From: Schmidtea polychroa
Taxonomy: Eukaryota
NCBI GenBank assembly: GCA_044892525.1
Contig: CM097885.1
Span: 270,692,001 to 270,756,000, forward strand
DNA length: 64,000 nt
Direction of reading: 5' to 3'
The position numbers and the translations under genes are program-made. Shown piece by piece: positions 13,301 through 17,402 of this stretch (position 1 is the stretch's first letter; the number at the start of each line of letters is the position of its first letter). Under the pieces are notes generated by a model. That model ran no database searches and was not told where the DNA came from. It saw only the letters and a list, made by a program, of their open reading frames with translations.

Positions 13301-15059
13301 GTGTGTAGTTCCTAATGAATGCACAGATTAATATTTTACTAAATAATCCAGAGCCTCTTATATCATGTCGGCAATGTCCAGTTGTCATGGCACGTCCTTT
13401 ACTTTCTCTAAGCTCATTAATTTTAGTCAAAATATTGTAGCAAAAGTGTTCTGAAAACACGTTCAAATCAGTGGTGACAGGACTCAGAAAATAATGTTCG
13501 TCTGTGTCATAGTCAATCACAAGAAGCAATTCATGGGCCTTTGGAGGGGAAATTATTGCAAATATCACATTTGATTTCATCATGCACTCAATATTTAAAA
13601 ATTCTTTCAAATATTCAGTGCAATCATCTGAAATTGCAGCGCACATTGTCCTATTTAGCAGCATGTAGTTAGTCGATAATTTTAGACTGTTGAAATATTC
13701 ATAAGTAATTTGATCAGTAATTTTTCCATTGATAAAATTAAGTCCAGGAGAAATTTCATTACACGACTGAGATTTCAATTCACTAAGCTGGTCATATATC
13801 TTGCCATGGTCTAGATGCTTTTCAAAAATAAGTTTCTCAAAGAATACAATGAAGGAGCAAGCAAAATACTGATTATCATCAGAGTCAAAGGAAGGATGAG
13901 AAATTCCATGATGAGCAATGAATCTTATTTTTCGGTTAAGGCAGAATTGATTAAGGTATTCTGTGATTTTTACACCAATTTCAATGAGTCTATCGTCAAT
14001 GTTACGGTAATTAAAGTCAAATATGTGACTTCTAGCAAGTTTGGTAGAATAAATGAAGAGACACCAGGTTTTAAATTTAGGAATTATGCAAATGATATGA
14101 TCGACTCCTTTAAATTGCTTGAATGTTACATTGTCAGCAATAAAGGCATCATTCTGGGCAATTAAATTTAATGTCAATTCGGCTGACAAAACCGATACGT
14201 TTGGTATATTTTGATAGTATTTATTAATTATTGATGACACACACGGCATTTGAGTCCTTAACAATCTGGTCGTGTCTGAATTAATATTGAGAATCTTCTT
14301 TTTTGCCATCGCCTTTTCGTAACATTTGGTTGTGAGAGATGAGACACAAGGTTCCATATTATTAGGGTTTATAATTTTGACATTCATAATGGGGTTGCTT
14401 TTAGGTTTTATTGCCTTTTTGAAGTTGATTTTATTGAGAAAATGATTTTTAGATAAGCCACCCCCTGATACAGTAGAATAAGATTGACAGTGAATCAATT
14501 GTTTCCTAATGTATTCAACAAACGTATTTGGGATAGAACTCCATTCTCGAGATACAATCATCGCATAACCGCAAATAAAAGGACCACAATCGTAATTATT
14601 ATCTTGATAAACAAGATCTTTATACGGGTGTTCAATTATTAATGAATCAAGATTAAAAGTACAGTTTAATACATTATTCATTTTAACAGCTATCTTCTTA
14701 TTTACTAAACTATTTCTATTCTTCAAGATCGGATCGATAAAATAAGAAGTTAATGAAGTCTTACAATAAACAAACAAGACCCAATGCGAGTTGTTAATGT
14801 TGAGTGGACATAGAATTACTTGAGCTTCAAAAATAGCTTTGGGAAGATCAACAACCTCTTCAGCAATATCAGAACATAAGATACTAACAATGAAACATCT
14901 TAAAAAGGTAAACATTGGATTATTAATATGATGTAGAAGGAAATAATCAATTTCATCATCAGTAAACCAGCGTGTTCGGTCAATTTCAGAAAGTTTATTT
15001 GTGCATTCTGCATCAGTCTCATATGAGAACGGGGCAGATATTTTCACTGATGCAGGCAC
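10389..15059 (-). CDS. A1 ORF2: Ulp1/SENP-like cysteine protease repeats + reverse transcriptase + CCHC + restriction-like endonuclease (no ATG at the start; probably reached by readthrough)
   Basis: Protease motifs SHWVL, FIDP, YQDNNYDCG. RT motifs SPGLD, WRPIALL, LDIKDAFGSV, GVKQGCPIS, YADD (12042-12053). CRRC..ETITHVLQTC. RHN..RVDLL..VDIK. Confidence 0.93.
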   Translation of the reverse strand: MPASVKISAPFSYETDAECTNKLSEIDRTRWFTDDEIDYFLLHHINNPMFTFLRCFIVSILCSDIAEEVVDLPKAIFEAQVILCPLNINNSHWVLFVYCKTSLTSYFIDPILKNRNSLVNKKIAVKMNNVLNCTFNLDSLIIEHPYKDLVYQDNNYDCGPFICGYAMIVSREWSSIPNTFVEYIRKQLIHCQSYSTVSGGGLSKNHFLNKINFKKAIKPKSNPIMNVKIINPNNMEPCVSSLTTKCYEKAMAKKKILNINSDTTRLLRTQMPCVSSIINKYYQNIPNVSVLSAELTLNLIAQNDAFIADNVTFKQFKGVDHIICIIPKFKTWCLFIYSTKLARSHIFDFNYRNIDDRLIEIGVKITEYLNQFCLNRKIRFIAHHGISHPSFDSDDNQYFACSFIVFFEKLIFEKHLDHGKIYDQLSELKSQSCNEISPGLNFINGKITDQITYEYFNSLKLSTNYMLLNRTMCAAISDDCTEYLKEFLNIECMMKSNVIFAIISPPKAHELLLVIDYDTDEHYFLSPVTTDLNVFSEHFCYNILTKINELRESKGRAMTTGHCRHDIRGSGLFSKILICAFIRNYTLDISLENINLSEISNIVNSLVPIVEETNISRDERRKNMKIVSSSKLTLKQRIEKLNHLLILSSTSSIDEIINIILGNIPRITGLDGRDVRKPYLGRNHNKVSKVKNSTEFLKNMKKTVNRILGSHSENVEPPFQEILNNFSHPDALFRSWGNACKYSKISEYELTIDIILPEEILPILSKADNTSPGLDNVNYKDLLLLDPECKLLALLFNKIIQLDTIPTSWKSFKTILIPKPDKNGQYHKVSSWRPIALLSVIYKVFASILADRLSCWVRCNNLLHVGQKGGSQYEGCVEHNSILSAIVEHSKCNKSLPLTIAWLDIKDAFGSVPHDYMWTLLRYMNAGEKFVNLLKLIYTDTSSFYCCNKMQTPDIPIKKGVKQGCPISMILFSLAINPVLEAINISNISPFMIGTSPVQVLAYADDIALIANNSNDLQKLIDVAVNCANEIGFEYRPEKCAYIQYPKVDSARDIVVNNQLIKRISANEFYQYLGVPIGDNNDQSPYEIVSKVIEDTKKIANSDLLGWQKLKVYKVFLHSRLIFPFRTREIKTSSLSDPKKNSKININNTSLLRSHLRKILNLPIYSEISYFYNSTDNGGAGCTDLLDEYHTQTIVYFFRLLTSTCEYSKKINTFSFLSATSPRIGMKNPTLAQGFEWINGKESKENHNSCKTRFQRLRTSISYFFRVHNIKILFESFKGNPSIRLTTSLTGTRILLPTLRKSLSMILHSVIQDSYLERWEKSNNSNLLISAIKLCPLVNKLVFRSDLTEFEWKFVHRARTNTLSTFAKPHKNGDDRLCRRCKSEEETITHVLQTCKINKSIATNRHNACLEKIKTLLKNPELIVVVDHKCSLVPTSNERVDLLITNIEKKTILLVDIKCPIDSLSNFESVDKLNLTKYESLRSEIQKVKPDYKVELFTCIFGSLGSIEQNAPDLLMKMGIPQNRINTLLKECAISNIAHSAKMWYFHTNGILPNLA

Positions 15060-17402: not shown

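Follow-up and report, generated by a model that had tools for sequence, protein, structure and literature searches.

The question raised by this locus is how a mobile element makes the product of its second open reading frame (ORF2) when the first (ORF1) ends, in the same frame, at a single UGA codon. The window, which is the whole stretch of 64,000 nucleotides of Schmidtea polychroa DNA analysed here, is a 281-bp tandem tRNA-Cys(GCA) gene array interrupted by five insertions (Table 1). The initial annotation placed one in-frame TGA between ORF1 and ORF2, followed by a stem-loop, and regarded it as a candidate for programmed readthrough in a non-LTR retrotransposon. The single stop was recovered at all four junctions, at the positions given there and on the minus strand: in each, one TGA closes a long ORF, and another of 1533-1888 codons follows in frame. 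The junction motif has 4 exact matches, against 0 expected from 100 shuffles.

The A-type copies are joined to the tRNA gene at position 19, and element B near the anticodon. Copy C is damaged, with about 424 nt inserted in ORF1 (55539-55962) and a 10-nt overlap; its C-type 5' part is joined to an A-type ORF2 and the protease is duplicated. In element A3, 18 nt replace 160 codons around the junction, and ORF1 and ORF2 are fused without stop or stem. This in-frame junction deletion was found once in the genome. The 5' junctions of the A-type copies (17400, 28954, 37517) are identical in the three copies; each falls within the spacer, some 54 nt upstream from the 3' junction. The first ATG of the A-type ORF1 sits at the 5' junction.

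Table 1. Features of the window (positions counted from its first nucleotide)
Feature	Position	Strand	Remark
tRNA-Cys(GCA) array, insertion target	17400..21560; also 1-9982, 28954-30585, 37517-39709, 47217-48922	-	
Element A1, whole	9983..17399	-	3' end joined to tRNA-Cys position 19
ORF1 of A1	15069..17402	-	Mostly helical model; C-terminal tail disordered, basic, ends at the UGA
In-frame UGA, copy A1	15066..15068	-	
6-nt spacer AGA TGT, A1	15060..15065	-	Length constant in all genome stem-pattern matches
5' arm GTGC-CTGCATCAG, A1	15047..15059	-	Positions +10 to +22; G-C pairs +12 to +14
30-nt loop, A1	15017..15046	-	Variable; upper-stem extensions family-specific
3' arm CTGATGCAG, 3-nt bulge, GCAC, A1	15001..15016	-	
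ORF2 of A1	10389..15065	-	1558 codons, stop to stop
Ulp1/SENP-like C48 protease	14496..14981	-	W33, H94, D111, Q154, C160 invariant in 11/11 aligned proteins
Gly-Gly-Gly, codons 201-203	14457..14465	-	Predicted self-cleavage site
Reverse transcriptase, PF00078	11832..12611	-	E 1e-29
CCHC zinc knuckle and restriction-like endonuclease motif	10686..10928	-	C1380, C1383, H1392, C1397, D1443, D1458, K1460; invariant columns
Element A2	21561..28953	-	
UGA and stem cassette, copy A2	26555..26622	-	
Element A3	30586..37516	-	Fused ORF1-ORF2
Element B	39698..47216	-	Insertion near tRNA-Cys anticodon arm
UGA and stem cassette, family B	44594..44661	-	
Copy C, chimera	49305-57928		
UGA and stem cassette, chimeric copy C	54907..54974	-	

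The ORF1 protein of A1 has no convincing Pfam or fold match, and the PDB fold search returned none with E up to 0.001. ORF2 begins with the protease, which scores above the cut-off for PF02902 and has Ulp1/SENP matches over ORF2 profile positions 16-195. The best PDB matches of the reverse transcriptase (RT) are R2 proteins, at E 9e-87 versus 1e-26 for L1. The C/H/D/K motif at the ORF2 C-terminus is presumably a restriction-like endonuclease (RLE), by analogy with elements of the R2 group, and the Pfam search found no APE family match in the element proteins. By the R2-closest RT and the CCHC plus RLE motif, the elements are assigned to the RLE-type non-LTR retrotransposons of the R2 group. 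They look like R5/LIN elements of the NeSL clade, the likeness of the 3' ends to LIN15/LIN25 having been judged by eye. NeSL-1 and Utopia-1_TSP likewise carry an Ulp1-like protease upstream of RT and RLE. R5 has two ORFs. The planarian R5/LIN elements LIN15_SM and LIN25_SM target tRNA genes, as do the elements described here, and have a similar AT-rich 3' end (Kojima and Jurka 2015, PMC4640811); the available part of that account reports no readthrough, stem or ORF junction.

The stem has the geometry drawn in the initial annotation: GTGC pairs with GCAC, a 3-nt bulge lies on the 3' side, and CTGCATCAG and CTGATGCAG stand 30 nt apart. Its folding z-scores are -3.5 in A, -3.6 in B and -4.9 in C, with 0/200 shuffles as stable. 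Among seven cassettes, six have z between -2.6 and -4.9, and one family folds weakly (z -1.85, 6/200 shuffles as stable). No known Rfam element was found at the cassette. The further claim that differences around the stop are only synonymous holds inside the window and fails in other families, where the first codon after the stop encodes Lys or Arg and the second Cys, Tyr, His or Phe. Within the loop, positions 15027-15031 (minus strand) retain a CT core, UCUGC in most. Base pairing of this UCUGC with GCAGA in the 3' arm could give an alternative fold incompatible with the main stem.

The combination of TGA, 6-nt spacer and stem occurs in 585 copies genome-wide when third positions are left free in the search pattern, and the reversed-pattern control gave 0. 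With A, C or G in place of the T nine nt before the GTG, the same stem was found in a single decayed and frameshifted copy, which has CGA. A stop shifted by 1-3 nt is absent among the listed stem-pattern matches, and a narrower pattern gave 0 copies with TAA, TCA or TTA at the stop and 0 with a changed third base. Among the 100 of 585 matches listed, neither of the two codons that follow the TGA is a stop. TGA is present in 36/37 cassettes; the exception, L131, is a decayed copy beyond the strict pattern that has lost the stop. ORF2's own stop varies across 10 families (TAA in 7, TGA in 2, TAG in 1), unlike the UGA of the cassette, and these counts indicate that the UGA is selected. No amplified family with a sense codon or a fusion was found, and no fused ORF1-ORF2 relative among 7997 candidates scored, which is weak evidence. 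A pseudogene stop was considered and is ruled out by the 585 copies and several intact families.

These families are divergent. For most pairs of 12 representatives the ORF2 N-terminus is 46-65% identical and ORF1 34-62%, except in one close pair. Conservation was compared in nine of the 12, picked as distinct. Fourfold and third-position identity is 0.45-0.47 along ORF2 of these nine families and is thus saturated. Third positions within the cassette match in 136/136 comparisons for the 5' arm, 86/100 for the 3' arm and 87/128 for the loop. Four- and sixfold codons with an invariant amino acid are also nucleotide-invariant in 5/6 cases in the cassette versus 6/223 elsewhere. The comparison indicates that the stem arms are selected as nucleotides; invariance alone is no proof of pairing. 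Block conversion is made less likely by a loop that varies while the arms on either side stay frozen.

Covariation across more families had been put forward as a check on the stem. It did not appear: at the DNA level, the 18 cassettes compared in this genome hold no double-sided compensatory change, and their covariation score is no higher than that of shuffles (320/500). Variation at two pairs is confined to G-U, and 3/18 cassettes have lost the top G-C pair. No variant of the cassette peptide with Ser replaced by Pro, Thr or Ala exists in this genome, and a genome search with the N-terminus of an outside protein found no family with Pro/Gly arms.

Relatives from outside this genome extend the comparison at the protein level. 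The RT region, used as a query, gave 42 proteins, and the cassette peptide stands at the start of 12 of the 16 outside relatives inspected. This start presumably corresponds to the GTG after the stop, as a bacterial-code gene caller would choose; the first residue is given as M, and a true ATG instead of GTG is possible. The outside peptides have Ser/Asp in 5, Pro/Gly in 4 and Thr/Gly in 3, with loops of 5-10 codons. Ser/Asp and Pro/Gly would fit U-A and C-G at one stem pair, which suggests a compensatory change, and Thr/Gly implies a mismatch at that pair in three proteins. The Pro/Gly proteins form one branch, so the covariation is probably one event. In a quick tree of 38 rows, all unnamed (that is, without a named R5/LIN protein) and with P0030 left out, the cassette-bearing proteins and all nine genome families form one clade with support 100.

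Beyond this clade the junction takes other forms. A sister clade in this genome has TGA-CTA in frame at the aligned place in 25/30 loci; of the remaining loci, one has AGA and four are misaligned or shifted. The UGA falls at the position of the protease's conserved Trp and no stem follows it (z -0.4 to 1.9). According to the available text of PMC13517186, UGACUA is a known type II readthrough motif. The metagenome locus L101, a tRNA-Phe insertion that is 29% identical, has an in-frame TGA-CAA before a decayed protease-like domain. A stable stem is lacking there (z -0.66, and between +0.45 and -1.55 when six lengths are folded). It is a single copy and its TGA could be a chance mutation. Related lineages thus hold an in-frame UGA near the start of the protease, in differing contexts of which one is a known readthrough signal. 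P0011, also beyond the cassette clade, comes from a single ORF, and its protease His is residue 973 of 2039. No similarity was found between its N-terminus and ORF1 of L101, which leaves a shared ancestral polyprotein unsupported. At L101:5730-6861, a long 3' UTR holds three imperfect repeats before the tRNA-Phe junction.

The ORF2 product could be obtained without decoding the stop if the UGA were removed from the RNA by cis-splicing, by spliced-leader trans-splicing or by A-to-I editing of UGA to UGG. Flatworm spliced leaders end in AUG, and one in-frame AG (codon 16) is common; this AG is missing, on the other hand, from an intact multi-copy family. Contigs of one presumed RNA run over the junction, in themselves weak evidence, have GT-AG introns of 48, 69 and 55 nt (14405-14452, 14659-14727 and 14908-14962 of the window, plus strand), antisense to the element. 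The antisense spliced contigs over ORF2 could form double-stranded RNA, yet no change at 15066 is seen among the 40 of 75 letter differences listed, and predicted folds leave the stop unpaired or pair it variably. None of the six joints in these contigs (again weak evidence) is a sense-strand intron over the stop. No record that carries the element is listed as RNA and two of four runs compared gave no cover, neither of which bears on expression. Removal at the RNA level is very unlikely on this evidence. The antisense introns yield no long ORF and their sites are not conserved across families; the antisense spliced RNA is possibly related to silencing.

The UGA could also be a sense codon of the host or encode selenocysteine with the hairpin as helper. 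Selenoprotein N does have a hairpin 6 nt downstream of its UGA, but element A1 has no SECIS match up to E 10 and the site lies within a disordered basic linker. All 183 Trp codons counted in 10 families are TGG and no other stop interrupts the ORFs, which speaks against a sense UGA, and both variants are exceedingly improbable. Stop hopping, in which peptidyl-tRNA-Lys would leave AAA or AAG and land on the ARR after the UGA, is just as hard to credit. Lys precedes the stop in 14/15 cassettes and ARR follows it in 15/15, but an intact tRNA-Gly/Asp family has TCA-TGA-AGG and, as far as the available part of PMC5009743 goes, no natural case is known.

Initiation after the stop is the other way of avoiding it. 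In-frame Met codons 35-49 codons downstream had been given as a caveat in the initial annotation. Counted from the stop, A has its first Met at codon 51, B at 37 and C at 39; counted from the GTG, these are codons 49, 35 and 37. The reinitiation that they were held to leave open is weakened by five families in which no Met precedes the catalytic His. If ORF2 were started at the first AUG downstream, by reinitiation or internal initiation, and the stem served another purpose such as packaging or RNA stability, five families would offer a Met for it, at codon 37-81, and the accessible part of PMC5972666 describes reinitiation at a distance in L1. These Mets lie, however, after or close to the invariant W33-F34-x-D36 (A numbering). 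In five other, intact families the first Met is at codon 139, 145, 152, 180 or 317. The catalytic His of these five families is at codon 96-108 (92-108 over all ten); the first Met is past it in all five, and past the Cys in two, and the protease is still conserved. This position argues against AUG reinitiation, which is highly improbable. An AUG overlapping the stop would be out of frame and open 15-18 codons, and is GUG in 3/15.

A GUG start at +10 is a serious rival, given SART1. SART1 is also a non-LTR element in which ORF2 is governed by an RNA structure beyond the ORF1 stop, through coupling that combines this structure with a close stop and start (portions of PMC5972666 and PMC3708506). 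Here, termination would be followed by stem-aided reinitiation in the manner of SART1, but at a non-AUG codon, the invariant GUG that comes six nt downstream of the stop. The GTG is invariant in all cassettes inspected and opens the frame before the whole protease, and the outside proteins are presumably called from the GUG codon. This invariance would also follow from the pairing of the GUG in the stem. Reinitiation at GUG leaves the constant UGA, the frame and the 6-nt distance unexplained, and the codon has a poor context (37/37 cassettes have Y at -3 with C at +4). In the sister clade, moreover, the UGA at the conserved Trp of the protease has no stem. Whereas SART1 restarts at an AUG that overlaps the stop (UAAUG) in another frame, the elements here share one frame and lack a usable AUG. 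A start at GUG is, on balance, unlikely.

The initial reading of the junction as programmed readthrough is supported by the comparative evidence: a constant UGA, a constant in-frame distance, frozen arms and the lack of usable AUGs. The ORF2 product is probably, at good confidence, the result of programmed UGA readthrough. Ribosomes would translate ORF1 and mostly terminate at its end. When the stop codon occupies the A site, the mRNA entry channel would meet the G-C pairs (+12 to +14) and the 9-13-bp upper helix; these would delay termination, and a near-cognate tRNA would occasionally be inserted. The candidates at UGA are the tRNAs for Trp, Cys or Arg. A minor ORF1-X-protease-RT-endonuclease polyprotein would consequently be made beside a fixed excess of the ORF1 protein. 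Ulp1-type proteases cut after Gly-Gly, and this pair occurs 42-53 aa after the catalytic Cys in 10/10 families here, in 8/10 outside full-length clade members and in 3/6 more distant proteins. Given the conserved Gly-Gly and this specificity, the protease probably releases the RT-endonuclease from the ORF1-protease part. The sequences show the frame, the identity and spacing of the stop, the nucleotide constraint, the predicted fold, the catalytic residues and the Gly-Gly motif. From these we infer readthrough as such, how often it happens, which residue is inserted, what the stem does, and self-cleavage. A link between the tRNA-Cys target and the insertion of Cys at the UGA is ruled out, the same cassette being present beside ten or more other tRNA types.

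The lower helix starts at +10 and the upper one at +14. The entry channel takes 11-12 nt and proven stimulators have spacers of at least 8 nt, according to the available sections of PMC13517186. The geometry of the cassette would fit an entry-channel model well, if inexactly, its 6-nt spacer being below the 8 nt of proven viral stimulators. The context UGA-ARR matches none of the Beier-Grimm types I-III (UAGCAA; UGACGG/UGACUA; UAGGGV), and A at +4 is not classically leaky. The same partial source gives UGAAGA at the gag-pol stop of the retrovirus SSSV.

Type II viral readthrough (VEEV, SINV, CTFV) and the gamma- and epsilon-retroviral gag-pol junctions (MoMLV, SSSV) also combine a stop with a downstream structure. 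They have G-C pairs near +12, and the predicted pairs of the cassette fall at +12 to +14. Viral and retroviral readthrough also gives a minor polymerase fusion, which is deduced here from sequence. Unlike the viral cases, the present one concerns a non-LTR element with UGA-ARR, a helix from +10 and a simple bulged hairpin rather than a pseudoknot, and its protease is a cysteine protease of the SUMO-protease family. The putative readthrough signals differ among lineages, with the hairpin in the elements described here, UGA-CUA in the sister clade and UGA-CAA in the distant L101, and so do their positions. It is conceivable, with a little less than an even chance, that these elements converged on a gag-pro-pol arrangement like that of retroviruses, apparently undescribed for any LINE, in which the proportion of ORF1 to enzyme is set by a leaky UGA and the RT-endonuclease is released at a di-glycine by a SUMO-protease-like domain, with signals and positions specific to each lineage.

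Reviews of non-LTR elements, in their available parts, describe reinitiation (SART1, L1) and 2A skipping as routes to ORF2. A search of the full-text literature, with the primary R5 paper and Repbase outside its coverage, found no description of readthrough in non-LTR elements, and the available portion of PMC5009743 names none. The element lineage and the kind of recoding are both known; their combination was not found in print and an earlier remark is possible. If true, readthrough would be a third route to the ORF2 protein in two-ORF non-LTR elements, and the cassette would be a further natural case of stem action at a UGA-A stop. The Ulp1 protease of NeSL-type elements would gain a function, a point that bears on the engineering of R2-like elements. 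The cassette is a testable unit of 70 nt with many natural variants.

The targets of the clade are diverse. No relative was found among viral contigs. Copies of the clade adjoin tRNAs Cys, Trp, Thr, Ser, Phe, Val, Pro, Ala, Gly, Asp, Gln and Arg, the insertion junctions being mapped inside tRNA-Cys for A and B and the other families being placed by the adjoining tRNAs. At loci L061-L080 and L128-L144 the clade adjoins at least 12 tRNA types. Families L065, L068, L069 and L136 form clusters without a detected tRNA within the retrieved stretch. Loci L064 (G000:C3:81863200-81872200) and L066, compared with L071/L072, point to modular recombination between families: an A-type N-terminus stands on a different RT (73% vs 65%), adjoining tRNA-Thr. 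Target switching may be accompanied by such module swaps. At ORF2 codons ~270-600, two more stretches resemble, by eye, decayed copies of the protease fold (SYxIDP/YFLSP-like repeats). An AT-rich minisatellite and a 74-bp tandem repeat, with no relation to the readthrough cassette, occupy positions 61956-62779 and 63741-64000 of the window.
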